A DNA stretch of 64,000 bases from Rhizophagus irregularis. Lineage: Eukaryota. The translations under genes and the position numbers were made by a program. The stretch covers positions 3,038,001 through 3,102,000 of the forward strand of contig NC_089435.1 in NCBI RefSeq assembly GCF_026210795.1. The letters are read 5' to 3'. This document shows positions 5,651-34,845 of the stretch, piece after piece. The first letter of the stretch is position 1. Each line of letters opens with the position of its first letter. A model generated the notes under the pieces. That model had not been told where the DNA came from and ran no database searches. It was given only the letters and a program-made list of their open reading frames with translations.

Positions 5651-6039
5651 AAGTAGGATTTTTAGGCGATTTTTTACTCTAAAAGGCAAAAATTTTGGTT
5701 GATCATTTCATTTTGGTCAGATTTTCACCTAAATTTTCTATTCCGATTTTGAAAATCATCCACATGCATAGTTGCCATGGATACAAAAAAAATTGCCTTT
5801 TTCGTAAAAAACTCTCAATTTAATCTTAAGTATTAGTACAAGTACTGTACATATACAAGTACAAGAGCAAGAACATGAACATGAACATGTACATGTACAT
5901 GTACAGAGAAAGTGAACATTCACTATGGAAACTTTTTGCGCAGAGTTTAACTGTGCTGCTCAAAAAGAATGTTAACTTGACAGATCATGAATAAATCAAC
6001 ATTTTTTAATAATATGTCGATCATTTTATTAAAATATAA

Positions 6040-7040: not shown

Positions 7041-8200
7041 ATAATCTTGATTAATAGTATTAAAATAAATATTTTTACGATACAGTAAAATTACAGTTTT
7101 TCTGTATAAAACTCAAAATTGGTATTCTAAATCTAACTTTTAAGATTAATTAAAGTTGTAGACCTAATAAAGTTATACATAATTACAAATTTACAGACTT
7201 ATGTAATGAATGGATAAGTCTCACACCTTAATTTCGTACTTAATTTTAACGATTTTAACAGTTTATCTATGTATGACTCAAAAACGGCATTCTAAATCTA
7301 CTTTTTAAGATTAATTATATTTGTAGCCCTAATAAAGTTACATTTAATTGCAAATTTACAGACTTTACGTAATAAATGAATAAGTCTTCCGCCTTAATTT
7401 CGTGCTTAATTTTAACGATTTTAACAGTTTATCTATGTATAACTCAAAATTAGCATTCTAAATCAAACTTTTAAGATTAGTTAAATTTGTAGCCCCGATA
7501 AAATTACATATAATGCTTGCATTTGAGATCTCTTTAATTAATAGCTCCAGAAATATTAAAAGTTCATAAAAGTCAAGAAAGTTTTGTGCTACGCAAAACA
7601 AATGTTTTACTTATAGATCGGCATAATGCATTTCTTCAATTTTAATACGTTTACACCACTTTTGATTATATGTTAACTACATGTTTTTACAATACAACAT
7701 CCCATAATTTTATCATGCAAGATACATTATGTTATATTCTTTTTATAAATCAATTTATTTTTACTGTTGCTATCATTTGCAACTTACCCAGGAATGAACG
7801 ATTTAAACCATCTAATATATCAACATTGGCATTAATCCCAGGACCAAATGATCCATCATTACATCGCATAAATTGCTCTGGTGCTATATTGGGAATTTTC
7901 TTATAACAATAGTTTTAAATAATCTTAATTATAAGTAAAAAGTGTGTAAAATTACTGCACCACAAAAATAATTAATTTTACTTATAATTAAGATTATTTA
8001 AAACTATTGTTATAATAGTAAAAATAAATTGATTTATAAAAAGAATATAACCTAATGTATCTTGCATGATAAAATTATGAAATGTATTAATCTTAAAAAG
8101 TAGATTTAGAATGCTAATTTTGAGTTTTATATAGAAAAACTGTAATTTTACTATCATAAAAATATTTATTTTTAATACTATTAATCAAAGATTATTTAAA
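7040..8200. mobile_element. Foldback-like remnant with nested inverted repeats and a CACTA/En-Spm-like transposase fragment
   Basis: Inverted pairs at ~7040-7150/8085-8200, ~7700-7765/8017-8080 and ~7904-7941/7976-8013. The peptide 'ICNLPRNERFKPSNISTLALIPGPNDP' (7770-7860) matches the CACTA (Tnp2-type) NLP..R...N......IPGP.EP motif. Confidence 0.6.
7105..7515. repeat. ~166-bp tandem repeat, about 2.5 diverged copies
   Basis: The sequence actcaaaa..g(c/t)attctaaatc..acttttaagatta recurs at ~7111, ~7277 and ~7442. Confidence 0.8.
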
Positions 8201-11200: not shown

Positions 11201-11439
11201 AATACCTACTTCAAAGTCAAAAGTTCTGAAAGAAACATAATCTGAACTGTTTCTGCAAAAAAAAAAGAAAGCAACGGTTGGCAATAACAGAAAAAAAAGT
11301 CTTAAAACACAGACATACTCTTTATTCTATTCAAAGTCCCAATATATTGCTATAAGAAACAAAATTGATAATAATAGCTAAAGGACAAAAAAAGCTCGAC
11401 CTAAATAAAAAATAAAAAAGACCAAACCATTCTTAAATA

Positions 11440-11636
11440 CAGTGACACCTCTATAAGTGCACCCTCTATAAGTGCACGCACTATATAAATTCTCTTTAAG
11501 TGCACGGTGGACCTGATCCCAACTTATAAGAGCTCTTAATATTTTACTCTCTATAAATGCACACCATCTCTAAGTGCACATTCTACTATTTTTTTACTAT
11601 GGTCCCAAGGGGGGTGCACTTAGAGAGGTGTCACTG
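11440..11636. mobile_element. Tc1/mariner-pogo-type MITE
   Basis: TIRs of about 25 bp (cagtgacacctct[a/c]taagtgcaccc) with TA on both sides (11438-11439, 11637-11638). Internal taagtgcac repeats. Confidence 0.9.
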
Positions 11637-11856
11637 TACAAAAAAGAGAAAAAGGTTAGTAAGCAAAAAATCTTTCAACCGAAATGAAATATTTACTTCA
11701 GTGAGTTCAATTCAAACAGATTTTTGTGTTAATAGAGATCCTGGATCTTTCTGTAAAAAACAAGCAATCTCATGCGCCTTTTACTAACAAAGTTGTTAAA
11801 GTTGTGAAGGATAATTGCGCAGCTAAGAAAAAGGTCCAATTTGTTCCATCGTAAGA

Positions 11857-12209
11857 AGTAGTATGAAAACCCCAATTCTGGCTCACCCCCACCATATAAT
11901 CTAAAATACTACCACTTTATATAATCTAGTTACCACCATCATATAATTTTAATTACCACCATATAATCCACCTACCACTTTTCATATAATCTAGTTACCA
12001 TCATATAGTTTTATTACCACCATACAATTCTATTACCACCACACAATCTGAAAAAATTAACCGAACAAGAAATAGGATTTCAAAGCCAACGGAGCCAAAA
12101 AAGGTAAGGAATATTAACCCATCCAGGAAACCAGCCATGGAGTCAATAGAGCGGAATAGCAAGGCAAGCAATTTCCCTTATACCGAGAAAAAATGTAATT
12201 GAATAAAAG
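11857..12209 (+). repeat. Left terminal inverted repeat (353 bp)
   Basis: Reverse complement of 23428-23865 apart from an 85-bp difference. Contains (t)accacca-type subrepeats. Confidence 0.95.
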
Positions 12210-12248
12210 GTAGGTACCAAGTAACTATACAGATAAATAGTACATAAC

Positions 12249-12695
12249 ATGGTATATACCGCAGAAAAGTTAGCAACAATCTTTGGCTGCACAGTCTCTG
12301 ATCTTATGGCTATCAATAGAGAGATTCTAAAAAGCCACCAAACCCCGTACGCAGTATCAGTAATCCCCGAACTTGTGGGCCATATCCTGGAATACATTCC
12401 AAGTAGAAATTTCGGGACACATCTTCTAGAAGTCAGCCCAATCTGGAGAGCCGAAGCTGAACGAATACTCTGGAAGCGGCATAAAGAAGCCGAGGAGGCA
12501 TACGACAAAGCAGTAGAAAAGAAGGAAAAAGCAAATGATGCTCTTGGTCGATCAGAGGAGGAGGGTAATAGAAATCGTGACCTCCGTGAACTTGAATGGG
12601 AGGCATATCAAAAGGCTTGTAAAGAGAGAACAAATGCTGCAGTAGAGCATATTATGGTAAAAGAAGCTATTTGCCGTTGTAGCTTACAACTATAA
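12249..12695 (+). CDS. Element-encoded F-box-like protein with coiled-coil tail
   Basis: 'VIPELVGHILEYIPSRNFGTHLLEVSPIWRAEAERILW' fits the F-box consensus (LP.E....I..yL......l..Vs+.W). Confidence 0.55.
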   Translation: MVYTAEKLATIFGCTVSDLMAINREILKSHQTPYAVSVIPELVGHILEYIPSRNFGTHLLEVSPIWRAEAERILWKRHKEAEEAYDKAVEKKEKANDALGRSEEEGNRNRDLRELEWEAYQKACKERTNAAVEHIMVKEAICRCSLQL

Positions 12696-12857
12696 GTTAC
12701 TTAAGGATAGAGTATACATCAGGACGAGGATGTGCTCAGTGACTCGGAGGACAATCCCGATGACTCAGATGGTGAGGAATAGTTTAGGAAGACAGTACTA
12801 ATCTGTCTCCCTCTTTTTTTACCCTCATAGGGTAGGCGAACAATTAATTTTATTTTC

Positions 12858-12910
12858 AGAAAAAATGTAATTGAATAAAAGAGGAGTATAAAAAGTTTAC
12901 AAGATGTCAA
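12858..12910 (+). promoter_or_regulatory. Putative element promoter/leader motif upstream of pPolB
   Basis: The 24-bp sequence agaaaaaatgtaattgaataaaag (12858-12881) is identical to the inner ends of both TIRs (12186-12209 and reverse complement 23428-23451). Confidence 0.6.
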
Positions 12911-15900
12911 CACATCAAGCAAGAAGTGCCCAACACAGACAAGTCACCCGATCAGTTCTAGCTGAACTCAAGCAGGTACCTGTCAAGTCCATCCCATATC
13001 CCCGCTCAAATGCAAAATTGCAGGAATATGAGGATGAGATCCGCCAAATCCATGAAGCACAAGCGGCGGTAACCAATGAAGAGATAACCCGCATGATGCA
13101 AATTGATCCAGACCCACATTATGAGGTAGTCTTTGAACGTCGTGATCAGGTACGTATAGGAAAGGAGTTAACAGACTCAAACTTTACGGCTGATATTGCT
13201 ATAGGAACACCTGGAGAGCATGACTATGCTTCATTTCTTACAGCACACAGTCAAACAATCCAGAATATTCTTCAGGATGAAAGAAATCGATTGGGATCAA
13301 TAAAAGTAAGAATTGGAATATTTGCCACAATAAGACGTTTAGATTCTTACCTTGAGGGATTATTCGGAGATGGTAACTTTAGTGAAGATGATGGAGTAGA
13401 GTATATCTACAGATATAACATACCATTTAAAACTCGCAATATGCCAATCCTACCATCAACAGATATTAATGGTACATTTAACTTTGCATTAGCAAGAATC
13501 ATGCAGAAAGTAGAAGACTATGTAAATTACGGATCAGGTTGGGAATTCTATCGTGTAGAAAAAATATTTATAGAAATCTCGCAATTCCAACCACCCACAG
13601 GAGCAGGACATATACCACTCCCAAAAGATCTTGCCACGAAAAAGGGAGTAGTAAATCCAGCTAATGATGATGACAAATGCTTCCAGTGGGCAATCCTAGC
13701 AGCATTACATCCAGTAGAAAAGAACGCAGAAAGAATTTCCAAGTATAAGGAGTATGTAAATGAGTTAAACTTTGAAGGTATCGAATTTCCAGTACAAGCT
13801 GATGAGGTAATTCTAAGAAGATTTGAGCGACAGAATCCAACTATTGCCCTCTGCATCTGTGAATGGCGTGACCACCGCCTATGCCCAATATATGTTACTG
13901 ATAGGGATGATGCAGAGGGCCGTAAAATAATAGATTTAGTACTTATCAGTAACGGGGAAAAGCAGCACTATTGCTGGATTAAGAATATGAGCCGTTTAGT
14001 AAATAAACGTACAAAAGATGGACATGCAACATTTGTCTGCCGATGGTGTATCTCCCACTTCACACATCAACAAGAAATCCATGACAAACATGTAGCAATA
14101 TGTCGAGGATTAAAGAAAACCCCACAAGCAGACCGAATGCCATCAGTAAAGAAAGGAAATGATATATATGAATTCAAGAACTGGAAACGCCGCATGCAAG
14201 TCCCATATTACTTTGTTGCAGACTTTGAAGCCCTAGTAATGGACATACCACCCACAGATGAAGACAAAGATAAGAAAACCAAGAAAGTACAAGAGCAAAT
14301 CCCCTGCTCATACTCGTATATTAAGGTAAGATATGATGGTGTAAGTGAATCACAGAAGATATTTACAGGAGAAAATGCAGCACAAAAATTTGTAATCGAA
14401 ATGCTAAATGAGGCTAAAGCAATCCGTAATGAATTCAGAAACCCAATGGAAATGATGCCGTTAACAACCCAAGAGCAAGCAAGTTATGATAATGCAATAA
14501 ACTGCTGGATATGTCGTAACCCCTTAGATGGAAATAAAGTAAGAGACCACTGCCATATTACAGGAAGGTATCGAGGTGCAGCACATAGAGGATGTAATCT
14601 TGACTTATCCATAAAACCTCGTGAAATGCATATCCCAGTAATCTTTCACAATTTATCAGGATATGATGGACACATAATTATGCAAGGAATTGGTGCAATG
14701 GAATGTGAGGATGATATTGATCCTATCCCTTATAACATGGAAAAGTATATGGCATTCAAGTTAGGTTCCCTCCGATTTATAGACAGCTTACAATTCATGA
14801 AATCAAGTCTCGACAAATTAGCATCCAATCTAGGTGCAGAAAAATGTAGAGCACAAGAATGTAGTAATCCACAACACTTATGGCGAATTGATGCAGGTAG
14901 ATGCTTTGCACATCCCGAAAACTTTAAGATAACACGAAGTCAAATATCACCTGAATTACTCGAGATTTATCTTAAGAAAGGTGTCTACCCGTATGAATAC
15001 ATGGATGACTGGAAAAAGTTCGAGAAAACTAGTTTACCACCTAAAGGAGCATTTTATAGCAAACTTAATGAAACCCACATTAGTGATAAAGAATATGAAT
15101 ATGCACAGTATGTATGGGAAAAAGCAGGATGTAAAACAATGCAAGATTATCATGACATTTATCTCAAAACTGACGTCCTCCTACTAGCCGATATATTTCA
15201 GAATTTCCGAGAAATGGCCTTGAAAAAATATGGGTTAGATCCTCTCTGGTATTATTCAACACCAGGCTTCGCATGGGATGCACTATTCTTAATGACAGGG
15301 CAAAGATTGGATCTTATAACTGACCAGGACATGTACATGATGGTAGAACAAGGATTACGTGGTGGAATCTCTATGGTAAGTAAACGATATGCTCGTGCAA
15401 ATAATCCAGGTATGGGAGAAGGTAAATGGACCGCAGATAAGCCCAAGTCATCTATTCTATACTTAGACGCAAATAACCTATATGGATGGGCCATGTTGCA
15501 ATACTTACCTACAGGTAACTTCCACTGGATAAAGGAGGAAAACGAGTTATCTAACATTCAAAGGCAAATAGAAAGTAATGAAATACCAGACAATTCTTCT
15601 GAAGGATATATCCTTAAAGTTAAACTGGAGTACCCTCAAGTCCTCCATTCACAACACACAGATTACCCCCTTGCACCAGAACGAATGAAGGTTAAGAAGG
15701 AATGGCTTAGTAAAAAGCAGCAGGAAATAATAGCACGCTCAGGACAACGATACACACCCACAGATAAGCTCATCCCTAACCTATTTGATAAGGATGAATA
15801 TGTAGTTCATTATAGAAATCTCCAGTATTATGTTAGCCAGGGCTTAGTAATCAAGAAGGTCTATGAAGCTATAAAATTCGAGCAGGCTCCATGGATGAAA

Positions 15901-16801
15901 CCATATATAGAATTTAACACCGCCGAACGTGCTAAGGCTAAGAATGATTTTGAGAAGGACTTCTATAAACTCATGAATAATAGTGTATTTGGTAAAACTA
16001 TGGAAAATCTCAGGAAACGTGTACGTGTCTCAGTAGTACAACCCCAAACCCATCCCAAGAAATATAAAAAGCTTACCTCAGATCCTGCATTCAAGAGTCG
16101 TAAAATATTCTCAGAAAATCTTGTTGCAATCCACCGACGAAAAGTGGAGGTAATGCTTAACCGTCCAACATATGTGGGTATGAGTGTGCTTGACCTCTCG
16201 AAGCTCTGTATGTATCAATTCTACTATGATACTCTTAAAGTACGATATGGTGAAAAAAATCCAGTTATGTTATACAGACACAGACTCACTTCTTGTACAA
16301 ATCCAAACTGAGGATATCAATGCAGACCTCATAGATATGGCAGACCAATTTGACTTCAGTGATTATCCTAAAGATCATCCTGTACGAAAAGCATTAGGTG
16401 ATAAGACTGACATAAATATGAAAATCCCAGGGAAATTTAAGGATGAATGTAATGGAGCAGTTATAGCAGAATTTATTGGCCTCCGTCCCAAAATGTACTC
16501 CATTCTCAAGGTAGGGGATGAGACCACCAATCCAAAACATGGTATCCGTAAAGCTAAAGGTGTCCCCTCAAAGGTAGTTAAAAAAGAGTTCCACCATGAG
16601 CGGTATAATAAGGCACTCTTTGATCCTAAACATAATGATACAGTCACCTTTAGAGCAATCCGATCTGATAGACATGCCATAAATGTTATAGAAATGTCGA
16701 AGGTGGGGTTATCCCCTATGGATGATAAAAAATGGATTGCACAAGATAATATCACAATGTATGCACATGGAGATTATAGGATACCACAACTTGAAAATTA
16801 A
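12904..16801 (+). CDS. Protein-primed family B DNA polymerase (Polinton type), split by one frameshift at A7 16253-16259
   Basis: GSGW; OTU-like 'DDKCFQWAILAALHP...QHYCWI'; exonuclease 'VADFEA', 'FHNLSGYDGH' and 'YLKTDV'; 'KGVYPYEY'; polymerase motifs 'LDANNLYG' and 'KLMNNSVFGKT'. 'YTDTDS' lies in the +1 ORF 16184-16801. Confidence 0.95.
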
Positions 16802-17856
16802 TATAATATATGAGTAGGAGGCAGCATAGTATCAGATGGCACAACTAATAATTCTTCTCGAGTAAATATTTTTTTAGGTCCATCAGATAACCTATATATA
16901 ACCGGCTGCCCATCAACAACTGTGGAAGATTCAATTGTATAAACTTTAGTAGACCATATTGGATCAGTTGCACGTCTCCTACCTTGGTAATCTGAGTTAT
17001 CAAGTAAGTATCTCACAAGAGAACCAGCTGGTAAACGTATTTCTTCTGCACCTACAGGTCTATCCTTCCGAATTTTTGAAGGTAGTGCATACACTTGATC
17101 TTTCTGGATTGCCTCAACTGGAGACATACCTAGCAGACGAGTATTAGAATTATTTAGCTCATTCACAATATCAGAAAGGTTCTTAACCCAGGCAGTATTC
17201 ACATCTTCTGTAAGGAGTTCCTTTGCATCCTGTATTTTGAAAAGTCTCTCTGCTAAAGTTCGATTATACCGTTCAACAATAGCCTGACTCTTATGAGTAG
17301 TACCCACCCGAATACGCACACCTTTTTCATCCATTAATCGGATAACTTCATCCTTAAATTCTGATCCCCCATCTACTTGTAAAACTCTTGGCCAAATAAG
17401 CGGGCAGTCTGCTTTACCATAGATCTTTTTAAATGCCTTAGCAACACGTGCAGAGCTGCGATCTTCTAAAGGTACTGAAGCTTTATATCGGCTAGCAACA
17501 TCTACAATATTCAGACAGTATTTATACAGCTTTCTATCTACAGTATCATAGGGCATATATAAGATATCTGCTTGATGATACATATTTGGTCGAGTAATCT
17601 TATTAAAAGAAACCTGTGGAACATACTTGGGTATAGGTGAGTGTATTTGCCATATAGCCTGTTTATGCAACCACTCTGTAATATCAGATATGTTAAAATC
17701 ATGGCCTTCAGCTTGCACTTTAGCCCAAAGTTTTTCAGGAGTACGATAATATCCACATGGATGGTAATAGATTTGTTGAAGGATATAATTTTGTTCGATT
17801 TGTTTATTAAATGTAGGGTCTATAAAAATCTGTGGAACTGGCAATGGAAGATACAT
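16798..17856 (-). CDS. Retroviral-like (rve) DDE integrase, Polinton type
   Basis: 'QADILYM' (D), 'LQVDGGSEF' (D), 'AIVERYNRTL' (E). Polinton-like N-terminus 'LQQIYYHP' and C-terminal 'WSTKVYTI...YRL...FTREELL'. First ATG at 17856. Confidence 0.93.
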   Translation of the reverse strand: MYLPLPVPQIFIDPTFNKQIEQNYILQQIYYHPCGYYRTPEKLWAKVQAEGHDFNISDITEWLHKQAIWQIHSPIPKYVPQVSFNKITRPNMYHQADILYMPYDTVDRKLYKYCLNIVDVASRYKASVPLEDRSSARVAKAFKKIYGKADCPLIWPRVLQVDGGSEFKDEVIRLMDEKGVRIRVGTTHKSQAIVERYNRTLAERLFKIQDAKELLTEDVNTAWVKNLSDIVNELNNSNTRLLGMSPVEAIQKDQVYALPSKIRKDRPVGAEEIRLPAGSLVRYLLDNSDYQGRRRATDPIWSTKVYTIESSTVVDGQPVIYRLSDGPKKIFTREELLVVPSDTMLPPTHILY

Positions 17857-20180
17857 CGTTAAAGACACAGATTACAAAGCTTGCACATACATTGCAATCA
17901 CAAGAGCAATATATAAAATACCTGTATGGTGTAATCGAGGGTCATGAATCTGAGATAGAAGAACTTAGGCAAAAAAATGCTGAGTTGCGTGCAAAGCTTA
18001 AGAAAGCATTAGAAACGGCATCACTAAAGGAGGAAGGGCTTCAAGCATTAGAACGTCAGCTGATTGAAGTTGATACTCTAAATATTCAACTTAAAGATCG
18101 AATAAAAGAACTTGCTAATAGACAACGGAAAAACATGGCAGCAATTCCTCCTGACCCTATTACAGAAATCTTAAATAATCGGACAACTATAGCAAATAGT
18201 GTAGCTGGTATTCGTATTCACCTTGATCGTACAACTATAGCAGCACACCCTCATATAAATCATTTATTTAACACTGCAAATGATAGTCTTGATGCCATTA
18301 TCCGATATGCTAATGAGTTGCGAAATATTATAGAAGATCAAGATAATATGGAGGATAGACTTGAAGGTTTGTTAGATGATGCACATAACCGTGAAGAATA
18401 TCTTAGACATGAACTTAATAATACACGTGCTACTATACTGAGAACAAGACGTACCTATGAGGATGCATATGCAAATGAAGTGCGTCATCGCCAACATTGG
18501 GAAGTCCTTGCACAAAATACTCAGATCCAATTGGCTAACATCCAGGCTCAATATGCTAACAGTCAAATTCAACTAGCTAATGTCCAGAGAGAACGTGATG
18601 AGAGTAGAAGAAATGCTCATAGATTATTACAGCGCTATAATACTGAAACAGAACGAAGTAGAAGGCGGGCTAATGGTATCATTCAGCAAGCTCGAGCATG
18701 GAGAGGGCAATTTTTAAACTGTCGTAATCATGGTCAAAATTTGCAAAATCAGGTCAATAATTTGAATCAACAGATTCTAGCATTACAAAATAACCCTCCG
18801 GTAATACAACAACCGATAATGGCAGGATATGCACCTAAAAAATTTAGAGGAGCATCTGGTGAAGATCCAGAACTTTGGCTTCAAGAATTCAGGCAATGGT
18901 GTGAGTCTGCTGGACTTGATCCTGCTGCTAATGCTAGAACTCGTGTTAGGATTCATGGGGTCTTTGAGACTTTACTTGAAGATGATGCTAGAGATTGGTA
19001 TGAAACACATATCAAAGGAAAAAATTGGGAATGTGTAAATCTTCTGGATAATACTGGTGTGGCCAATCTTGCTGCTTTTAATGCTTTGAATAATGGCGCT
19101 ATACAGGCTGTAGCGGCGAATCAATTTCGTGGAGGGGCTAATGTATTACATGGACAAGCAGCTGCAGTTAATACTATTACTGGTGCTAATTTTATACCTG
19201 ATCATACTGTATGGGATGAAGATTGGTCAATAGTCGAGGGTCGTCCTACTGATATAGCTGTTAATAATCCTAATGCTAATAATGGAGGTACAATTGTGGC
19301 TCCTGGAATACGTATTGGACAATTAATATATCGTTTTAAGCATTACTTCCCTACTATAACATCTGAAAAGTCTAAGCTTGCATTTAATGCTATTGTTCAG
19401 GGTAGTGATACTGTAAGCCGATTCTATTCTAAATTACGAAGAATGGTTAGACTTGCATATCCAACTCTTCCAGAGGTAAATCAGAATGAATTAGTACGGC
19501 AACAGTTCTTAAATGGTCTTTCCAGTGAAAATAAGTTGGATGCGCGACGTATTGGTTTAGAAAATTCAGTTGCATCTATTCTGAATAAATTGGAAGAAGT
19601 TGAGAAATACAGGACAGATATGCCACCTACTCCTATAGTTACATATCAGGGTCCAACTTTAGCGGATATTGAGAATCTTATAAATTCTAAAATTCCTATG
19701 ACTACGGCTAGATCATCTGCAGTACCAGTACCATCTTCTAGTCCATTTTCAAGTCCTCAAAATGATACATCATTTCAGAGATTACTTGCTTTAGCATATA
19801 AATTAGGTCTTCCAAGAGATATCGATATAAGTAAAGTAACCCTTAGTGATCTTGAAATATTTATTGATACAGAACTTAATAAAAATTTACCATCTGACCA
19901 TATTTACCGTGGTAATCAGGTATTTGGTATAAGTTCAGGTACACGCAAACCAAAGAAATCAAAGAAATGCTCAAGTTGTGGAAAATCTGGTCATACTAAG
20001 AGTTCCTGTCCAAAATCTAAGAAGGGAAAGAGGAAAACAAATTATGCACATGACTCCTCTGATTCCTCTAACTCTTCTGATGCCTCTGACTCCTCTGACT
20101 CCTTTGATAGTGATTCAGACTCTGGACATGCCTGCTATGGATTAAAAAAAAAAGCCTACAGAAAGGAAACGTGTAGATAA
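17844..20180 (+). CDS. Gag-like protein: long N-terminal coiled coil, Ty3/gypsy-like capsid domain and CCHC zinc knuckle
   Basis: 'PKKFRGASGEDPELWLQEF', 'LLEDDARDWY', MHR-like 'IVQGSDTVSRFYSKLRRM', 'RQQFLNGLS', and the knuckle 'CSSCGKSGHTKSSC' (CX2CX4HX4C, 19968-20009). Confidence 0.85.
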   Translation: MEDTSLKTQITKLAHTLQSQEQYIKYLYGVIEGHESEIEELRQKNAELRAKLKKALETASLKEEGLQALERQLIEVDTLNIQLKDRIKELANRQRKNMAAIPPDPITEILNNRTTIANSVAGIRIHLDRTTIAAHPHINHLFNTANDSLDAIIRYANELRNIIEDQDNMEDRLEGLLDDAHNREEYLRHELNNTRATILRTRRTYEDAYANEVRHRQHWEVLAQNTQIQLANIQAQYANSQIQLANVQRERDESRRNAHRLLQRYNTETERSRRRANGIIQQARAWRGQFLNCRNHGQNLQNQVNNLNQQILALQNNPPVIQQPIMAGYAPKKFRGASGEDPELWLQEFRQWCESAGLDPAANARTRVRIHGVFETLLEDDARDWYETHIKGKNWECVNLLDNTGVANLAAFNALNNGAIQAVAANQFRGGANVLHGQAAAVNTITGANFIPDHTVWDEDWSIVEGRPTDIAVNNPNANNGGTIVAPGIRIGQLIYRFKHYFPTITSEKSKLAFNAIVQGSDTVSRFYSKLRRMVRLAYPTLPEVNQNELVRQQFLNGLSSENKLDARRIGLENSVASILNKLEEVEKYRTDMPPTPIVTYQGPTLADIENLINSKIPMTTARSSAVPVPSSSPFSSPQNDTSFQRLLALAYKLGLPRDIDISKVTLSDLEIFIDTELNKNLPSDHIYRGNQVFGISSGTRKPKKSKKCSSCGKSGHTKSSCPKSKKGKRKTNYAHDSSDSSNSSDASDSSDSFDSDSDSGHACYGLKKKAYRKETCR

Positions 20181-21054
20181 AAAGCCTACTGATAAGAAAA
20201 AATCACAACTTGAAAGGCAGCGTATTATCTTTGAGGTTTTTATACAACTCTTAAAGCTTCTGGTTCAATCTTTCGTTAATGCTGTACCAAAAGAGACTGT
20301 TATATCTGCTTACAATGCTCTGAATGCTGAATTCATTAATTATAAAGAACCAGTACTCAGTCAGCTTAAAGGAGAACCCTCGATAAAAACACGTGAAAAA
20401 GTTTGGGATAATGTTAAGGACCTTTTCACATCTATCCTTCATCCTATGATTTCGGTTGTAACTAATAGTATGGCTGCAAATTTAATCCGTAAAAATGATG
20501 ATGTTATATGTAATAATGACTTATGGTCTTCTATAGCAGGTATTGGAATTGTTAATCGCAAGTCTGCTAGTGATGTAGTCACTATTAAGACCAAAGTAGT
20601 CGCACCTGAGAGTGAAAAATCTTTAGTTATTCCTACGACAATTTTCGATACTGGTTCTGATAGTTCTCTGATATCTAACAATATTGTAAAGCGCCTAAAT
20701 CTTGACGTTGATAGAAGTAATGCTCCTGACCTTAGTGGTGTTGCAACAAAATCTGATACTATTGGGACAGTATATGGTCTTGGTATTCTTGTATATGATG
20801 GGGAGAACTCTAAAAAAATTGAAGATGACTTCATGGTTGTTAAGAGTGATAAGGACTTTTTATTGCTAGGTGTACCTTGGATTGATCGTGCTAATGTCAT
20901 TCTAGATTTCCAAAATCGGCAACTGACCATTCCTCTATCATCACGTAAAAAAATTACCATTCCAATTTCTCTACATAAACGGAAAACTAACGTGATTTCC
21001 TTGCAGATGGATACTATCGACTTAAAAAAAATTCACACTCTCGAGGAAGATTAA
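20146..21054 (+). CDS. Retropepsin-like aspartic protease; its frame opens at the A10 tract overlapping the gag 3' end
   Basis: 'TIFDTGSDSSLIS' (D at 20647) and 'LLLGVPWI'. The frame is open without stops from 20146, right after TAA 20143-20145, well upstream of the ATG at 20446. Confidence 0.85.
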   Translation, partial: KKKPTERKRVDKKPTDKKKSQLERQRIIFEVFIQLLKLLVQSFVNAVPKETVISAYNALNAEFINYKEPVLSQLKGEPSIKTREKVWDNVKDLFTSILHPMISVVTNSMAANLIRKNDDVICNNDLWSSIAGIGIVNRKSASDVVTIKTKVVAPESEKSLVIPTTIFDTGSDSSLISNNIVKRLNLDVDRSNAPDLSGVATKSDTIGTVYGLGILVYDGENSKKIEDDFMVVKSDKDFLLLGVPWIDRANVILDFQNRQLTIPLSSRKKITIPISLHKRKTNVISLQMDTIDLKKIHTLEED

Positions 21055-21173
21055 CCTGTCATCTATGTGGAGCAAGTTTTGACTTTCCCTCTAAGTTAAA
21101 GCGTCATCTTGCTAGGAAAAATCCATGTGTTTCCCAAACTTCTGCGGCAATGATGGGCAGTGGCGGGCAGTGA
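21021..21173 (+). CDS. Short zinc-finger frame (not in the ORF track), -1 relative to the protease
   Basis: Reads LKKNSHSRGRLTCHLCGASFDFPSKLKRHLARKNPCVSQTSAAMMGSGGQ*. There is no ATG between the upstream stop (20988) and the finger. An A_AAA_AAA heptamer lies at 21024-21030. Confidence 0.6.
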   Translation, partial: LKKNSHSRGRLTCHLCGASFDFPSKLKRHLARKNPCVSQTSAAMMGSGGQ

Positions 21174-21285
21174 CAGGGCAGTGCCCAAATTTTTTCAGCA
21201 GTGACGGGCAGTAACAGGGTAGTGCCCAAATTTTTTCGGCAGTGACGGGCAGTAACAGAGCAGTGCCCAAATTTTTTGGCGGTGA
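21157..21285. repeat. 41-bp GC-rich tandem repeat, 3 copies, between convergent genes
   Basis: Unit approximately gcagtgacgggcagtaacagggtagtgcccaaattttttcg. Confidence 0.85.
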
Positions 21286-21301
21286 TTAGCCTTTACAAAT
21301 A

Positions 21302-21814
21302 TTACATTTGCCATGTTACTCTGATTTCTAGGTCTTTACGGGTTTCTATGAGTTTTTCAATGGCATTTCTATTTTTAAAATATCGACTACATCTGATATC
21401 TAGCTTTTGAAGGTTTGGTAATATATGCAGGATTTCACTTAGCAAATCTCTAACGTCACCTTTTCCACCATAGTATTGATAATCTATTATGCTAAGTTCC
21501 TGAATATTGGGACAAGCTTGTAGCATTTTTACAATACAAATGGGCCATAATTTTACCCCATCCATATTAAGCTTTCTGATATATTTTCCACATACTGTTC
21601 CTGGTTTTGTAAGATGTTTATACATTTGGAACTCCTTCACATTATAGCGGTTATAAAGGTCTACTTCACCCCATAGGAGAGAGTTTGCTACTACAGCCCA
21701 TTTTCGACACACTAATGCATAATTGCAAAGATAATGCCAACGGGAGTAAGTACCTTCATATGAAGTTTTGAATATCTTTTCTAAAAGTTCAAAAGATAAG
21801 CTATTGTTTGTCAT
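21302..21814 (-). CDS. F-box/LRR-like protein carried by the element
   Basis: F-box 'LSFELLEKIF...LCNYALVCRKWAVVANSLLW', followed by LRR-like 'IRKLNM', 'CPNIQELSI' and 'LPNLQKLDI'. Confidence 0.8.
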   Translation of the reverse strand: MTNNSLSFELLEKIFKTSYEGTYSRWHYLCNYALVCRKWAVVANSLLWGEVDLYNRYNVKEFQMYKHLTKPGTVCGKYIRKLNMDGVKLWPICIVKMLQACPNIQELSIIDYQYYGGKGDVRDLLSEILHILPNLQKLDIRCSRYFKNRNAIEKLIETRKDLEIRVTWQM

Positions 21815-21918
21815 GGTATCTCATATGAGATATTGATGGTGAAGTTTTATTTAATTAGATTTTTTCTTAGGATAAAATAATTTGAACATTTCTTTTCTAT
21901 CAATAGAAAAAACCAAAC

Positions 21919-22710
21919 ATGCTTACTTTTAGTGAACTTACTCCATCTCTTACTGTTACTGAATTTAAGATCAATGTTGAAGGGCTTGATTACACCGTGC
22001 TTGGTCATAAGCTTGAACCTACTAAGGATGTTATTGCCATTAATAGCAACTTTATTCATAAAGCTTTTGAGGGTTATGAACAGTACTTGTCTAAACCAAA
22101 AGGTGAGAGGCGATGCAGACGAAGTACACCTGACAATCCATTAAATAGACGGCGACGTACAGGGGATGGTAGCACTTTTAATGCATGCATTGAGTTTGTT
22201 ATCATCTTAGCTGATACTGTACATACTATTCGTTATTTTCCTAAATCTGGTAGTATACAAGTTTTCGGGTCTTTTGATCCTGTTGCTATCTTCTTACGTT
22301 ACCTTTCTGAATGTTCCCTACCTGAATTTTCTTCTGTAGAACTTGTGGGTGAAAATAAGGCTCTCCTGCGCAATTATAAATTTGTGATTAATATTGGGGG
22401 TGATAAGTTTATTAATCTTTCTACCTTAGCATATGCTTTAGAATCTATAGATGGTATTCGTGAGATTCTTCCCTTTCCGATAAAGTATATTAAGAATGAT
22501 GCAGGTGATATTCATTCTAAAATTGCTATAATCTTTACTTCAAAGATTCGGGTACATATCTGGCCTAAATCTGGTAAGGTTAATATATTTGGCACTAAGA
22601 CTGAATTGGATGCTGATATGGTTTATAAGTTCTTACAGAAGTTGTTTTCTAATCCGAATGATTTTGGGGATTTTATTTGTGATGCACCTATTCCAGATTG
22701 TGAGAGGTAA
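21919..22710 (+). CDS. TATA-binding-protein-like protein of asfarvirus (ASFV B263R-like) type
   Basis: Two TBP-like repeats, 'IRYFPKSGSIQVFG' and 'VHIWPKSGKVNIFG'. Also 'RRRRTGDGSTFNACIE', 'AINSNF.H...GYE' and C-terminal 'PIPD', all colinear with ASFV pB263R as I recall its sequence. Confidence 0.75.
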   Translation: MLTFSELTPSLTVTEFKINVEGLDYTVLGHKLEPTKDVIAINSNFIHKAFEGYEQYLSKPKGERRCRRSTPDNPLNRRRRTGDGSTFNACIEFVIILADTVHTIRYFPKSGSIQVFGSFDPVAIFLRYLSECSLPEFSSVELVGENKALLRNYKFVINIGGDKFINLSTLAYALESIDGIREILPFPIKYIKNDAGDIHSKIAIIFTSKIRVHIWPKSGKVNIFGTKTELDADMVYKFLQKLFSNPNDFGDFICDAPIPDCER

Positions 22711-22731
22711 AAAAAATGGTTTCACTGAGAA

Positions 22732-23403
22732 CTAAAAACCCTCTATTTGTAAAATCCAGCAATCGCATTCCTGACTTCTTGTTGGCATAAGACATTCGTC
22801 ACATAGAGTTATAGCCAACTCATTTTTTAGTCTATCCAGCTGACTCTCGGTGGTCGGTGCAAGATTCTGATAGTATTCATTGAATTCATTCTGCTCTACT
22901 TCATCTATGTCTTCATCTGTGTCTTCGTCCATATCTTCATCTCCTTTAATATGGTAGATGCTGAATTCATTTCTATATTCATCATTAGGATTCGTGAATA
23001 TTCTTTGTATATTGTAATCTATAATGTTGAATGTTGTAGGTTTCTTTTTTGATAATATTTCTACTAAGTCTAATAATGCATATGCTAATTCTTTATCCTC
23101 TGAGAAGTTCTTAATGATATCTGAAAATCTTTCATATATTGCCATCTCATCTGGTAGAATAGAATATCTTATTCGTGATAAAAGTGATGGATGTATCCAT
23201 ATATCATCACCTTCTAACATCTCATCAAATATTTCTACTAGCTCTTCTAATCCAGATACTAACATACTTTCTTTGCTAAATTCAGAATCTAAAGCTTTTA
23301 AATATGCTATATCTAAATACCACATTATTTCCTTTACCCATTCTTCTATGTTGAGTTCAAACTGGCCTAGTATACGTCTTAGTAATGGTCTGTATTGTGA
23401 CAT
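22732..23403 (-). CDS. Hypothetical acidic protein with a C-terminal Cys cluster
   Basis: Intronless 223-aa ORF starting 25 bp inside the right TIR boundary. Ends 'CDECLMPTRSQECDC'. Confidence 0.65.
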   Translation of the reverse strand: MSQYRPLLRRILGQFELNIEEWVKEIMWYLDIAYLKALDSEFSKESMLVSGLEELVEIFDEMLEGDDIWIHPSLLSRIRYSILPDEMAIYERFSDIIKNFSEDKELAYALLDLVEILSKKKPTTFNIIDYNIQRIFTNPNDEYRNEFSIYHIKGDEDMDEDTDEDIDEVEQNEFNEYYQNLAPTTESQLDRLKNELAITLCDECLMPTRSQECDCWILQIEGF

Positions 23404-23427
23404 CTTGTAAGTCTTTTATATGTGAAT

Positions 23428-23865
23428 CTTTTATTCAATTACATTTTTTCTCGGTATAAGGGAAATTGCTTGCCTTGCTATTCCGCTCTATTGACTCCAT
23501 GGCTGGTTTCCTGGATGGGTTAATATTCCTTACCTTTTTTGGCTCCGTTGGCTTTGAAATCCTATTTCTTGTTCGGTTAATTTTTTCAGATTGTGTGGTG
23601 GTAATAGAATTGTATGGTGGTAATAAAACTATATGATGGTAACTAGATTATATGAAAAGTGGTAGGTGGATTATATGGTGGTAATTAAAATTATATGATG
23701 GTGGTAACTAGATTATATAAAGTGGTAGTTAAATTATAGTAAAAGTGGTAGGTGGATTATATGGTGGTAATTATATTATATGATGGTGGTAACTAGATTA
23801 TATAAAGTGGTAGTATTTTAGATTATATGGTGGGGGTGAGCCAGAATTGGGGTTTTCATACTACT
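23428..23865 (-). repeat. Right terminal inverted repeat (438 bp)
   Basis: Reverse complement of the left TIR with about 85 bp of extra subrepeat around 23700-23815. Confidence 0.95.
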
Positions 23866-25964
23866 TAAGATCACTCTTAATGGTAGATTGCGTGATGAAT
23901 CAAGTGACACCTGAAAAAGTAATTTCTGATAACAACAAGCGCACAAAAGATACTGAAAGTACGAATAGTAGGGCAAGGAGATTGGTTAAAGGATAGATGT
24001 CTAGTTTAGGGTTTTTTTATTGTTCCTCATGTATGTAGATAGGTATCGCCTTTAACAGGCATTTCATTATATATATATATTTTTTCATATGTATAGTATG
24101 TTTTCTTTACAAAGCTCTAATAAAATAAAATTGGGTTAGCAAAGAAAAATCCTGAACGAGACTTACCATAAGAAGTAAGATTTTCCATTATTTTTTTTTT
24201 TTTTTTATAACAAAGGAAAAATTTTATTAAAAAAAAATTTGAAAACTCAAATTATACATCATGATTACTCTAGCTATTAAACAAGATCGAATAAAAACTA
24301 GTGAAAAGTTGGTGACTTAAGATTTTATGTTCAAAGGAACTATCTACCATCATGCCTGCCCAAATAGGTTCTTAAAATTTGCTAATAACAAAGCTAAAAG
24401 CAACAATACTACTATTCGTACATCCTTTGGTGAATAACCATGAGAGACTTTTCCACCACAACACCTTGAAATACTCCACAACTACATAGAAATAATAAAA
24501 TTTTTCTATGCATAAGTAACAAACTATATAAAATAAAACACAATACAACACCAATTTCTAAATGTTACTATAATTTGTTATAAAAAAAAAAGTCATATGA
24601 TAAATAACAACACATAACATTTAAATTTTTCAAAAGCTACCAATAATTTTCTTAAAAAATAACCGCATACATATAAAAAAAAGGTATACAAAAACAGTAA
24701 ATACGGCTGAAAACTATAAATAAAGTTTTCAAATTAAAATTTCTAAAAATAAAAATCAAAAATCATTTTTCAAAAATAAAACTGAAAATACATGCGAGTG
24801 AAAAAATACAGGACCATTGTCAAAAAATAATTTTTCAAAAAACTGAGAGCCTACGGGATCAGCAAAATATCCGATAAAAGCTTACTGTGAACTTACGGGA
24901 ACAGAGCCTATTGAGAGCCAACGGGATCAACTATCAAATATATAATTTTCCATAAAGACGTAATAAAAATATGATCCAAAACTTAAAACAAACACATGAT
25001 AAAATTTCATATTTGACTACTAATAAATCTCGATCAACAAAAACTATTGGTTGATCTTCAATTTTCGATCTACTAATAAATCTCGATCGGCAAACAATAT
25101 TGCTTTGATTTTCAATTTTTCAATGAAATACACGACAGGAAATTGCCTAAAATATTTATTGATCATCAAGGTCACGTGTATACTCCAGAAAATTTTCCCA
25201 TGAAAGAAAGACAATATTCTTTAACAAAGAAAAAAAAAAGGGAAAATATAAAAAATTTCAAATGTAAAATATAAAATATTAAACATTTCAATAAATACAT
25301 AAAGTTTTAAAAGAAAAAAAATCTAATAAAACTAAAATGCCTCTTTCTAAATAAACTTGTAAAATTGTTTTTTGTAATTTTCGAACTAAGCGTCAAAATA
25401 AATTAACTAGTATAACACACTAGTATTCTTAAGCCAAGTAAAAGGGCCCACTGCATATTTGTGGAAATTATTTTTCGTATATTATCAAAATACTATAAAG
25501 TTTTTTCTTTTACAAAAAAACTATTGCTACCAACAACTGGCTTAAAAACTGCGCTATCATAAAAAACAAGAAATAAAAGAAAGAGTTTAGGTTTACAAAA
25601 AAGGGACAACTCTTAACAGAATACTTTACAACCATATAAAACACAAGAACAAGTAAAAAGAATGTAAAAAAATAAATTTATATTTTTCTAAAAAATTTTT
25701 ATAAAATTTCGAGTCATTTTAATCCCCAGCAAAGGCATATGTGTTCTTCAAAAATTTTTGGTATGTAAAGGAAGGAGAAAGAGTTTTTTCCCGATCAAGA
25801 TTTTCCATTATTTGGCGATAGTATGATTTTGAAGTGGTGATCATCCTGCATGACCTTCCTTATTCATTCACTTTTTCGCTTAATTTGTAGTTTGTCCTCT
25901 GATCTTCATGCAGATTTTCATCTTTTTGGGAATGCACCATGTGAACTTCGTAGTTGAATCTTAT

Positions 25965-26100: not shown

Positions 26101-26673
26101 TTCTTTGATATCATTAGAATAAAATTACAAAATATTCATTTTTGTGCCACTTTTACTACATATTAACTTGCGGCATCAAGCAATAAGTTTTATATTTGTA
26201 TTTAATTTTGTTGATCGTTATTGATTTTCAAAGAAATAAAATATTCAAATATATTTCTTTTTTTCGTTAAAAAAATTAAAACGTGTAGATGATCATGCAG
26301 ATCTTGTGATAATCAATTAAAAAGTGTTAGACGAAATTTTTTTTCAAAAATTTAAAATTTTTTCTTTTTTTATAAAACATCATAAATTTTTTTTACATTT
26401 TTTTCTATTTGTAAGATTAAATATTTGGATATTACATAATTACAAATTAAATTTATAAGACTTTCTTTTAGAAAATAATGTGATATTTCATAAAAAATAT
26501 TTTTTCTTACTATTTTTATTTTAAACTACTTGAATTTATAATTAATGAAAGAATTAATTTAAAATTCATGTTATTTCAAATTTTTGTCAACTCAGTTCTT
26601 AATTTTCATATTACATTTTTTTTATATAAAATTTTTTTAAATTAAACTTCTTTTCCAAATACATTATAATCTT

Positions 26674-27625
26674 CACTTTGGACAAATGAAATTAACTTTA
26701 TTTATTAATTAAAAGTTGTTCAGGCAGGTTGAAACCACTTGAATATTAATTTTCATGAATGTAGGTGTAGTGCTTAAAGAAGATTGCATTTTTCTTGATA
26801 ATATTAACTCTCTTTTCTATTTTTTTTTAATTTAGAGCGTAATATCTCCACTTTGGACAAATGAAATCAACTTCATTTATTAATTGAAAGTTGTTCAGGC
26901 AGGTTGAAACCACTTGAATATTAATTTTCATGAATGTAGGTGTAGTTCTTAGAGAAAATTGCATTTTTGTTGATGATATTAACTCTCTTTTCTATTTTTT
27001 AATTTAGAGCGTAATATCTCCACTTTGGACAAATGAAATCAACTTTATTTATTAATTGAAAGTTGTTCAGGCAGGTTGAAACCACTTGAATATTAATTTT
27101 CATGAATGTAGGTGTAGTGCTTAGAGAAGATTGCATTTTTGTTAATGATATTAACTCTCTTTTCTATTTTTTTAATTTAGAGCGTAATATCTCCACTTTG
27201 AACAAATGAAATCAACTTCATTTATTAATTGAAAGTTGTTCAGGCAGATTAAAAGCACTTGAATATTAATTTTCATGAATGTAGGTGTAGTGCTTAAAGA
27301 AGATTGCATTTTTCTTGATGATATTAACTCTCTTTTCTATTTTTTTTTAATTTAGAGCGTAATATCTCCACTTTGGACAAATGAAATCAACTTCATTTAT
27401 TAATTGAAAGTTGTTCAGGCAGGTTGAAACCACTTGAATATTAATTTTCATGAATGTAGGTGTAGTGCTTATAGAAGATTGCATTTTTGTTGATGATATT
27501 AACTCTCTTTTCTTTTTCTTTAATTTAGAGCGTAATATCTCCACTTTGGACAAATGAAATCAACTTTATTTATTAATTAAAAGTTGTTCAGGCAGGTTAA
27601 AAGCACTTGAATATTAATTTTCATA
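26674..27625. repeat. ~174-bp tandem repeat, about 5.5 copies
   Basis: cactttg(g/a)acaaatgaaat occurs at 26674, 26849, 27021, 27194, 27369 and 27542. Confidence 0.95.
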
Positions 27626-29465
27626 AAATTTTATTTTTTTGTAGCTGTATTAACTTTAAAACACTTATTACAACTTACGTCATTATTTTATTTATTTATT
27701 TTATTTTATTTTATTACTAGAAGATACGTCATTATTTTAAATAATAAGAATTAATTTATATTATTGGCTAATTATAATCACATGATACTAAGGATTTTTT
27801 TTTATTTTTATATTTGATTTAATAATTTAGTAAAATATTATTAAAATCAAATTCATATAAATGCAACTAATATTAATAATTGTAATTTAAGCAGTAAATT
27901 CATTAACCAAATCGTGTAAATTCTATGCTTAAATTATGTAATTTCTGTGATCAAATCAATATAAATTCGGCATAAATTATGGTCAAATCATGCAAAATGA
28001 TACATTTTTGTGATATGGAATTGTGCATTTTTCCGTATCCCTATATAGATTAGAAACATTATTTTTAAGAAAAAATTGTATAAAACCTTATTAAAAACAT
28101 GATTTTTTATAGGTTTAATTATAATAAAATTTTATTATTTGGTAATATTTTACATACAATTCAATTTATTTATATCAAAAAATTTTTTTAATTATAAATG
28201 TTATGTTTGGGGGACGAAGTCCCCTGGCAAATCGCATATTCTAGTTATTGGTTAAATTTCAAAAAAAGTAGACATTCCGATTTCTGATGTTTTACGATAA
28301 TCCGTTAAACTAACTGTTTATCCATCTATCCGATTCTTTTAAAAAAATTTTATCTGGATAACGGATATCCGATAATTATCCGGATAAACGCTTATCAGAT
28401 TGACACACTAGAGATGATATGTGTCATGAACATATTGATGATATTACAGTAAAGAAGACTTTACATTGCGTTTGAAAAAATTAAAGAAATCAGATAATAT
28501 TCTTGACTTATTTTTATTCATGTAATTTTATTTTCACGTTCAGATAATAATAATATTATTTATCTTATATCTAGATTAAAAGAACACTACTATTATTATT
28601 GTAATTTTTTTTTAAAAAAAAGTCAAAAATATGAATTCATCATTTATAATTGACTTGAAATAAATAAATTTAATGTTTGAACCATTAATCATTATGCACT
28701 GATACACATTTATGTAAAATGATTTTCAAGTGTTAAAACTACTACACGCTAGACATGTTTTACGATGCAATGTCTTTAAAGGCTTTTAACCAATAACGTC
28801 ATAGAACATTAGAATATGCAAATATTTTGTATAGTATTTTGGAAACTTATGGTTTTAATAGGACTAAATTACTTTGTTCTAGAAAGATAATCGTTCTTGC
28901 ATAATTTACATAATTTTGGAATATTAATAATATGCGAATATAATTGTTTAGAATAGTTTTACAATTAACTTCACGTAGGAACAAATAGAAGAAAAAACCA
29001 ATGAGATGTAGTACAATATCTTGTTATTATTCAATCTACTTTTTTTTAATGAAATTACTATATTTGGTGTTCATTGTGAGGTTTAGAATGATTATACTAC
29101 AAAAGTAATTATACATCTCAATTTGTCGTACACGGTTAATTTTTTGACCGTTTCCTTTCTTGTTAATTTGTACTTTCCATCATTATCTTCTATGCTGAAA
29201 GATTTATTTTTATTACGCCAATTACTTAGATATTTCCACTAGTTAGTCATATGAATTACAAACTAAATAAATAAACGGACTTTTCCGTAGTACTATGGTA
29301 AATCCTTAAGATTCCATGAGAAAATCTAGAAATACTTTCCGTATTACCAACAAAAGGTTCAAACTCCTGGTAATTCAGATATAAATAAAAATACGTATTT
29401 CAAATTTTCCAAATTCATTGTCTTATCGATACTTGTTTATAACATATATTAATTAACTTAATAAA

Positions 29466-34032: not shown

Positions 34033-34845
34033 TAGGGTTCCGATCGGTTTCGGTAATTACCGAACCGAACCGATCGGTTTTCGGTTTTCGGTCGGTAATT
34101 GCATCAAAAATTACCGACCTAACACTTCGGTAATTTACCGATCGGTTCGGTAATTTCGGTTTTCGGTATCGGTTTTATCATTTATCGAACTGATTTACCG
34201 ATCTGACTTTATATTTTGTGATTGGCAAACTGATAATCTTTTTTAGTCCATATATATATAGTTTTTTTTTAATTTTTCTTTTTTTTACAGCAAATTTCAA
34301 AATATACGGGACACTTGAGAAATTTGATTGTCGGGTTGTCGGGTAGCCGGGTTACTCGGCAGTAGGTTGTTTATTAGAAAAGTATAAATAACACGTGACG
34401 AGTATAATGAATAGTAGTATATCAGATTATATAATAACCTACTGCCGAGTAACCCGGCTACCCGACAACCCGACAATCAAATTTCTCAAGTGTCCCGTAT
34501 ATTTTGAAATTTGCTGTAAATAGTAACGCGTTTATTATTAATTGATAACAATCATACAATAGATTACAATTTTATATAAACACCTAGCGTATACTAAATC
34601 CAAGGATCTCAATCTTAAATTTGTTTATTGATAGGATTTATTTTTTATATAGGTTTTGTAATAAATACATCGAGGAGTAGTAAATTCGGTAAATCGGTAT
34701 CGGTAATCGGTAATTACCGGCCGGTTTCGGTTATACAGTTTACCGATATCGAAAATTCGGTAAATTATCGATTACCGATACCGAAATTCGGTTTCGGTTT
34801 CGGTATGACTCAAACCGAAACCGAACCGTACCGATCGGAACCCTA
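34033..34845. mobile_element. Non-autonomous hAT-like element
   Basis: TIR tagggttccgatcggt, 8-bp TSD TTCAAAAT (34025-34032, 34846-34853), and dense subterminal tcggt(a/t)/accga motifs. Confidence 0.9.
34288..34516. mobile_element. Nested Tc1/mariner-type foldback MITE
   Basis: Perfect inverted arms 34284-34368 and 34436-34520 (85 bp including flanks), with CAG...CTG ends flanked by TA. Confidence 0.85.

Follow-up and report, generated by a model that had tools for sequence, protein, structure and literature searches.

A TATA-binding protein of the ASFV pB263R type in a capsid-less Polinton of Rhizophagus irregularis

A Polinton without capsid genes has been described before: Polinton-1_GI (Glomus/Rhizophagus intraradices, Repbase) is 11,954 bp long and was reported to lack the MCP, penton, ATPase and protease genes (PMC4028283), and its lack of a capsid has been interpreted as a loss in favour of a transposon lifestyle (PMC7805220). 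The literature searched, outside which lie the original 2006 description and Repbase, ascribes to Polinton-1_GI neither a TATA-binding protein (TBP) nor viral promoter signals nor a gag-protease module. Another capsid-less element with terminal inverted repeats (TIRs), the pacmanvirus lostcity transpoviron pltv, has AAAATTGA promoters and is linked to Asfarviridae; it is a 7-kb episome with a helicase, is found in virions, and the excerpted report does not mention pPolB, integrase or TBP (PMC11788076). PgVV, the Polinton-like virophage of Phaeocystis globosa virus, carries its helper's early promoter ahead of the polymerase gene and others, and relies on the helper to be transcribed; unlike the element described here it has a capsid and a mesomimivirus helper, and 'TBP' and 'TATA' do not occur in the available text of its preprint. 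The polymerase of the yeast VLEs pGKL1 and pGKL2 is protein-primed. These VLEs are also fungal elements with TIRs and have a poxvirus-like early promoter (PMC6211774), but they are cytoplasmic and bring their own RNA polymerase and capping enzyme.

Two further reports provide the viral context. In ASFV, the core early motif AAAATTGAAT lies 15–16 nt ahead of a TA initiator (PMC8906413) and has been attributed to the D6/A7 factor, poly(T) tracts are terminators, and B263R is an early gene whose product has been proposed to work at late promoters together with TFIIB (PMC7163114). An Asfarviridae-related endogenous region in R. irregularis, mentioned in the preliminary description of the present locus, is indeed in print: a 1.5-Mb GEVE in strain 4401 (GC 36.6%), sister to ASFV and the abalone virus, which is a single degraded insertion without an MCP and occurs in one of five strains (PMC10640383).

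The window, that is, the whole 64,000-nt stretch of R. irregularis DNA that we analysed (NC_089435.1, positions 3,038,001 to 3,102,000), contains an element with the features expected of a Polinton/Maverick: an RVE integrase, a short target-site duplication and long TIRs whose ends are of the AGT type. Polintons follow an AGT end rule, and this one reads AGTAGT...ACTACT. Its inverted arms are 100% identical, it is flanked by a TAAGA duplication, and its GC content of 0.369 steps down to 0.266 in the flanks, which bears out the Polinton setting that had been proposed for the TBP gene. Its parts are as follows.

11857–23865, no strand assigned: entire Polinton element, 12,009 bp, GC 0.369 (inverted arms, GC step, empty site)
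11852–11856 (+): target-site duplication TAAGA (5 bp), left copy
23866–23870 (+): target-site duplication TAAGA (5 bp), right copy
11857–12209 (+): left TIR, begins AGTAGT
23428–23865 (-): right TIR, holds an internal duplication of about 85 nt
12249–12695 (+): 148-aa ORF, no significant family, F-box-like by eye only
12904–16801 (+): protein-primed-type family B DNA polymerase (pPolB) with an endonuclease VII insert
16798–17856 (-): RVE (retrovirus-like) integrase (Pfam rve, E 7.9e-9, above cutoff)
17844–20180 (+): gag-like ORF with coiled coil, putative capsid domain and CCHC knuckle (weak Pfam)
20144–20153 (+): A10 run at the change of frame from gag to protease
20446–21054 (+): retropepsin-like aspartic protease, frame open from the junction (Pfam Asp_protease_2, E 4e-4)
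21302–21814 (-): F-box/LRR-like protein (Pfam F-box-like, E 1.6e-4)
21919–22710 (+): pB263R-type viral TBP, 263 aa, intronless ORF (sequence match, fold, tree)
22732–23403 (-): acidic ORF of 223 aa, C-terminal Cys cluster, converges on the TBP gene, no family matched

All 16 element ORFs of at least 70 aa were examined, and nine were scanned in Pfam. None of the 16 encodes a double-jelly-roll MCP, penton, packaging ATPase or cysteine protease, nor an RNA polymerase or capping enzyme, and no helicase, a transpoviron trait, was found among the element ORFs. Only the 148-aa and 223-aa ORFs have no family assignment. A role for the 223-aa product as a TFIIB-like partner of the TBP found no support, and a second subfamily of the element has a different gene at that place. 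The polymerase was recognized by its Exo and Pol motifs in the translated sequence, its library matches being weak (PHROG, E 0.0025) and PDB matches absent. It is split in the window copy by a frameshift at an A run (16253), where contigs of five of eight runs have one base fewer and the other three have no depth. By size, host and gene absences, rather than by sequence, the element very likely belongs to the same family as Polinton-1_GI.

While it has no capsid genes, the element does carry a gag-like and protease module. Matches of the gag-like ORF to Pfam are weak (E 0.04 and 0.02), its Atlas neighbours carry Retrotrans_gag/Ty3_capsid (0.92–0.93), and its single-sequence model has a pLDDT of 39, a fold search with it being uninformative about a Ty3/gypsy CA fold. 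Together with the retropepsin, and with no reverse transcriptase, it forms a fixed module in the window (17844–21054) and in three soil metagenome loci (L006, L008 and L019). The two genes join at a run of nine or ten A residues after a conserved CYGL, and the frame relation varies between copies (+1, -1 or in frame), which suggests that the run may be a slippage site; contigs of five of eight runs have one A fewer at 20144, the other three having no depth. The integrase and gag genes stand back to back with overlapping starts (17844–17856 in the window; a 10-nt gap in L006 and L008), so that the promoter of each must lie within the coding sequence of the other. After the protease gene there is a direct repeat of about 41 nt (21179–21300), with T6 runs at 21190, 21231 and 21272; one run has one unit fewer.

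The element has multiplied recently, and it has many near-identical copies and an insertion polymorphism. Near-identical TBP proteins named Rhizophagus irregularis occur at many loci (among the 15 members listed of a 56-member cluster), and contigs of two of the four runs examined join the flanks directly, leaving an empty site. Element contigs are about 12–20 times deeper than flank contigs in runs X4, X11 and X16, a ratio that does not give a copy number. Two RNA libraries from a single study also yield low-depth contigs over element genes; at depth 2–6 and unstranded, they may derive from DNA and are no gauge of expression.

The ORF at 21919–22710 runs from ATG to TAA over 263 codons with no break in frame, and it encodes a viral TBP of the ASFV pB263R type with the two-repeat TBP saddle fold. 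End to end, it shares 78 of 256 residues (30%; pairwise E 2e-30) with ASFV pB263R, likewise 263 aa long, and 71 of 254 (28%; E 5e-17) with the abalone asfa-like virus homologue. The colinearity of motifs claimed in the preliminary description holds: all of the named blocks are present in order, the spellings given being mostly those of the window protein, and their ASFV counterparts are ALNCNFGH, GYE, GDGTCFNSAIE, FPSTGEIQVPG, NFKFQIN, PYPIREIK, GKINILG, YTFLKDL and PVPD. A profile of 45 family rows matches ASFV pB263R at E 1.3e-32 (library size) and finds 553 proteins at E ≤ 0.001 among 1.84 billion representatives, including the abalone B263R cluster (E 6e-25). A second profile, from 70 distant matches, returns ASFV pB263R, pacmanvirus A23 PACV_239 and an Elysia B263R-like protein.

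Its link to cellular TBPs is remote, given that the window protein, scanned singly, matches no TBP family in Pfam (PF00352) at E ≤ 1, and that neither it nor its 45-row profile matches any PDB chain by sequence at E ≤ 10. Solved cellular TBPs are reached by sequence only through the profile of 70 distant relatives (best E 1.8e-7), of which 24 match Pfam TBP at E ≤ 0.01. The AlphaFold model (pLDDT 88.7, 45-row alignment) superposes over residues 1–256 on archaeal and yeast TBP (Z 13.6, rmsd 3.0, 178 aligned), in agreement with the two TBP-like repeats first noticed; in a PDB structure search, ranks 1–44 among the matches listed are all TBP-containing entries. The best named viral match of the model is abalone B263R (TM 0.76, E 3.5e-17). 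Intron-bearing database models of the gene are mutually inconsistent and were taken as prediction artefacts; one RNA-library contig, at depth 2, spans the commonest predicted intron unspliced.

Conserved residues fit a working protein. N42, F87, Q114 and N152, drawn from both repeats, are shared with ASFV pB263R and kept in 45 of 45 rows, and the acidic D197 of the second stirrup is kept in 39. The putative DNA face retains the aromatic residues F87, F107 and W215, which would be equivalent to the kinking phenylalanines of cellular TBP. Where cellular TBP has DNA-facing V and T, the window protein has Q114/F116 and N222/F224, with the Q and N also present in ASFV pB263R; with these residues, a canonical TATA box is probably not what the element TBP recognizes. 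Compared with ASFV, the protein has a shorter linker following its first IQV motif.

To place the protein, we built trees with FastTree (215 rows) and IQ-TREE (52 rows chosen by hand from those 215); the IQ-TREE run had not settled (bootstrap correlation 0.974), its root was imposed on the pacmanvirus-type rows and it includes no cellular TBP. A cellular root is missing because no archaeal TBP outgroup was found in the plasmids searched. Both trees place the window TBP in a 15-row clade with Entrophospora and soil proteins (100/100), which is sister to two rows (97/91) and lies inside the ASFV side, itself split from the pacmanvirus-type B263R proteins with support of 100/100. Genomic context is known for seven of the 15 rows. 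The asfarvirus origin proposed for the gene is supported; the clade is a separate lineage within ASFV-side diversity and not a recent copy from ASFV or the abalone virus, and the simplest reading is a single capture from an ASFV-side asfarvirus. With ASFV and the abalone virus the element TBP shares motif order and fold, and like B263R, an early gene in ASFV (PMC7163114), it stands behind an early-type promoter; it differs in its separate long branch and in residing in a 12-kb integrating element that has no RNA polymerase or TFIIB. A sister subclade (P0064, P0080, P0084 and Entrophospora P0087) and the nearest outside rows (P0094 and P0128) could represent further elements or the donor virus. 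Scans of IMG/VR with the family alignment, P0064 and the polymerase found no relatives. Entrophospora assemblies hold several TBP-family paralogues (P0087, P0089, P0097, P0101, P0116, P0119, P0252 and P0253), and the gene is therefore multi-copy in another genus of Glomeromycota.

The TBP is a conserved gene of this capsid-less fungal Polinton. In 26 of the 32 soil metagenome loci that have a relative of the TBP gene, this relative is accompanied by one or more other element genes. L008 (TBP identity 55%) has the order pPolB, integrase, gag, protease, F-box, TBP, ORF223; it is the only metagenome locus to reach the polymerase, so the architecture of the whole element is documented in few copies. 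The protease-TBP pair is also kept in a second, AT-richer subfamily, whose other cargo differs (for example, ankyrin and F-box genes). Across nine TBP genes, dN/dS was 0.19–0.59 in 35 of 36 pairs (35 being computable), with dS up to about 2, which together with the conserved context indicates that the gene is under purifying selection and has long been kept in the family. On their minus strands, loci L013–L027 of the second subfamily carry arrays of F-box-like, ankyrin and small genes lacking assigned function, several with a T-rich run and TATATA near the start; these may serve as late promoters or terminate the preceding gene.

Signals resembling those of ASFV surround the element genes.

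12188–12208 (+): promoter-like motif AAAAAATGTAATTGAATAAAA, left TIR, upstream of the 148-aa ORF
12860–12880 (+): the same promoter-like motif without mismatch, ahead of the DNA polymerase gene
21845–21865 (-): variant of the promoter-like motif with 2 mismatches, ahead of the F-box gene
23429–23449 (-): promoter-like motif, right TIR, upstream of the 223-aa ORF
21881–21887 (+): early-promoter-like core TTTGAAC, 31 nt before the TBP start
12814–12820 (+): T7 run, terminator-like, 118 nt past the 148-aa ORF
16869–16875 (+): T7 run, terminator-like, 67 nt past the polymerase stop
22823–22828 (+): T6 run, terminator-like, 112 nt past the TBP stop
22709–22716 (-): T8 run, terminator-like, 15 nt past the 223-aa ORF stop

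The 21-nt motif is identical before the 148-aa ORF, the polymerase and the 223-aa ORF, and everywhere outside the element at least four mismatches separate it from the sequence. For a wider count, 79 upstream regions from the window and the metagenome loci were dereplicated to 32, leaving out protease ORFs, which were counted with gag-protease, and skipping two antisense shadows. The pattern WTTGAAY, fixed only after the upstream sequences had been viewed, occurs 12–50 nt before the ATG in 17 of the 32 (dinucleotide-shuffle mean 1.37, maximum 5, 300 shuffles) and is missing from the other 15. Controls gave 5 on the opposite strand, 1 of 15 host ORFs and 2.5–3.5% of random windows. Exact ATTGAAT, the last seven letters of the ASFV core, was found in 7 of 32 against 0.52 expected, a count that includes three near-identical window copies, two of them sharing the TIR. 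In all 17 motif genes a TA initiator lies at +12 to +18 (shuffle 12.9, P = 0.011). The motif precedes the TBP gene in seven of eight dereplicated cases and integrase and gag in none of four; no conserved late promoter was found before either of the latter.

Runs of T are scarce in the coding strands of the element. In 37 hand-picked element coding sequences (30,720 bp), T ≥ 6 occurs once against 9.1 ± 2.5 expected under synonymous shuffling, A ≥ 6 being at its expected level (58 versus 60.8) and T ≥ 6 nearly so in 11 host ORFs (13 versus 15.8); for T ≥ 7 the element depletion (1 versus 2.6) is not significant. Within 150 nt after the stop codon, T ≥ 6 follows 25 of 34 element genes and A ≥ 6 follows 12 of 34. 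This downstream signal is weaker than the coding-strand depletion because host ORF ends also favour T over A (6 of 15 versus 3 of 15). Transcription by Pol III, which also stops at poly(T), was judged unlikely, as Pol III is not expected to transcribe kilobase protein genes. In the GEVE, AATTGAATA was counted 18 times and its reverse 25 times, with 7, 32, 22 and 14 for controls, which is no excess in a non-positional count over a degraded region. The element end motifs were found 0 times in the GEVE supplement sequence, where 60-letter rows may hide matches, and the supplement file searched carries no TBP annotation.

Considering these results together, we lean towards the view that the element is a capsid-less satellite, equipped with a working TBP of its own and transcribed by the RNA polymerase of a fungus-infecting relative of the asfarviruses. 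The element would wait integrated in the host chromosome. On infection, the helper polymerase and its early factor would read the WTTGAAY promoters of the pPolB, TBP, F-box and cargo genes, and transcription would end at poly(T). TBP would be made early, like B263R in ASFV. Since the ASFV early motif is attributed to D6/A7 and B263R is placed at late promoters, the element TBP would most likely serve a second stage, in which TBP, the helper polymerase and TFIIB would start the genes lacking the early motif, integrase and gag-protease; alternatively, it may pull the post-replicative machinery of the helper onto the element. New copies would be made by pPolB and inserted by the integrase, and spread from cell to cell would need a helper particle or a Gag-like shell. 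We infer transcription by a helper polymerase on the same grounds as for PgVV and the pacmanvirus transpoviron, and the GEVE lineage is a plausible donor of the TBP and a plausible helper. The preliminary description had suggested a virophage- or satellite-like lifestyle on account of the TBP. The satellite part of that suggestion gains support, independent of the TBP, from the promoter-like and poly(T) signatures; the virophage part, taken strictly, fails, because capsid, ATPase and cysteine protease are all missing. Against the satellite reading, no helper virus has been observed, and the GEVE occurs in one of five strains, yet element copies are numerous.

What else could maintain viral-looking signals in a chromosomal element? 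It may be an autonomous nuclear transposon whose captured TBP reads the element promoters and recruits host RNA polymerase II, the signals persisting through use by the TBP or another element protein, or as relics. We consider this unlikely, but the recent multiplication of the element and the restriction of the GEVE to one of five strains (PMC10640383) keep transcription by a host polymerase in the nucleus a live rival. The many near-identical copies, the insertion polymorphism with its empty site and the reported low-methylation Maverick copies (PMC8647823) mean that the element may move without a helper; the low-depth contigs in the two RNA libraries, DNA possible, also suit nuclear transcription, and D197, conserved in 39 of 45 rows, could bind a TFIIB. 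Several observations fit it poorly. The TBP gene itself sits behind the motif in seven of eight cases, and the ASFV early motif is attributed to D6/A7 and not to TBP; Pol II offers no reason for purging T6 from coding strands; and Q114/F116 and N222/F224 stand where cellular TBP has its DNA-facing V and T, with Q and N as in ASFV. The same promoter and terminator evidence would equally suit a helper-activated defence, in which the TBP is a decoy that soaks up the TFIIB or late promoters of the virus, cuts virus yield and so protects the fungus. The shorter linker after the first IQV motif and the F-box and ankyrin cargo, which may fit interference roles, lend this some appeal; we nevertheless think it improbable, as (near-)invariance of the ASFV-shared residues, including N42, F87, Q114 and N152 in 45 of 45 rows, fits a working factor, and integrase and gag, being without the early motif, need some second-stage factor.

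The helper need not be a giant virus: a linear plasmid in the cytoplasm, similar to the yeast VLEs and equipped with a minimal poxvirus-like polymerase, could in principle fill the role. VLE promoters have ATNTGA 20–40 nt before the start codon (PMC6211774), and ATTTGA upstream of the TBP gene fits, but the AATTGA variant before pPolB does not; moreover, VLE 3′ ends are tied to stem-loops rather than poly(T) (PMC6211774), the TBP is of asfarvirus type and no such plasmid was seen here, so that we give this version very little credence. Least credible of all is a neutral passenger, a viral gene captured once and carried without function. Several database copies are indeed truncated or modelled with introns, but this reading is already contradicted by the selection signal (dN/dS 0.19–0.59 at dS up to about 2), and the TBP is kept behind the protease in two divergent subfamilies that differ in other cargo.

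The Polinton family and the use of helper promoters by satellites are already known. What appears to be new is that a basal factor has been captured, that asfarvirus signals occur in an integrating element of a fungus and that a gag-protease module stands in place of a capsid; we found no report of a TBP, such a module or giant-virus promoters in fungal Polintons in the literature searched, and the 2006 description or Repbase may annotate some of the ORFs. Extending the satellite reading, we tentatively propose, while doubting that it will hold in full, that the widespread capsid-less Polintons of mycorrhizal fungi are satellites of a living asfarvirus, with helper promoters and poly(T), a late programme under a private TBP and Gag-protease replacing the jelly-roll capsid. 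The GEVE report states that, as of its date, fungi were not known to be infected by any double-stranded DNA virus (PMC10640383). If the asfarvirus-like signals, the selected viral TBP and the recent multiplication have been read correctly, an asfarvirus-type virus would still be infecting the fungi that partner most land plants, and the element would be a reporter for finding this giant virus, not yet isolated. A satellite with its own basal transcription factor would be a new way to exploit a helper, and the element TBP would offer a small, safe model for the role of asfarvirus TBP.

The remainder of the window has features of its own. Immediately to the left of the insertion site is a high-copy repeat (11422–11650) whose joints and loose ends are numerous in other runs. 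AT-rich tandem arrays occupy 5964–7044 and 26494–27663; their periods are approximately 61 and 175 bp, and a short palindrome lies in the 61-bp unit. Host genes with 108-bp (36-aa) repeats, Sel1/TPR-like by eye, are found at 37397–38788 and 41376–44683 (-). At 34284–34520, an 88-nt inverted repeat (99%) with a 61-nt spacer coincides with a local GC peak and is possibly a small non-autonomous transposon.
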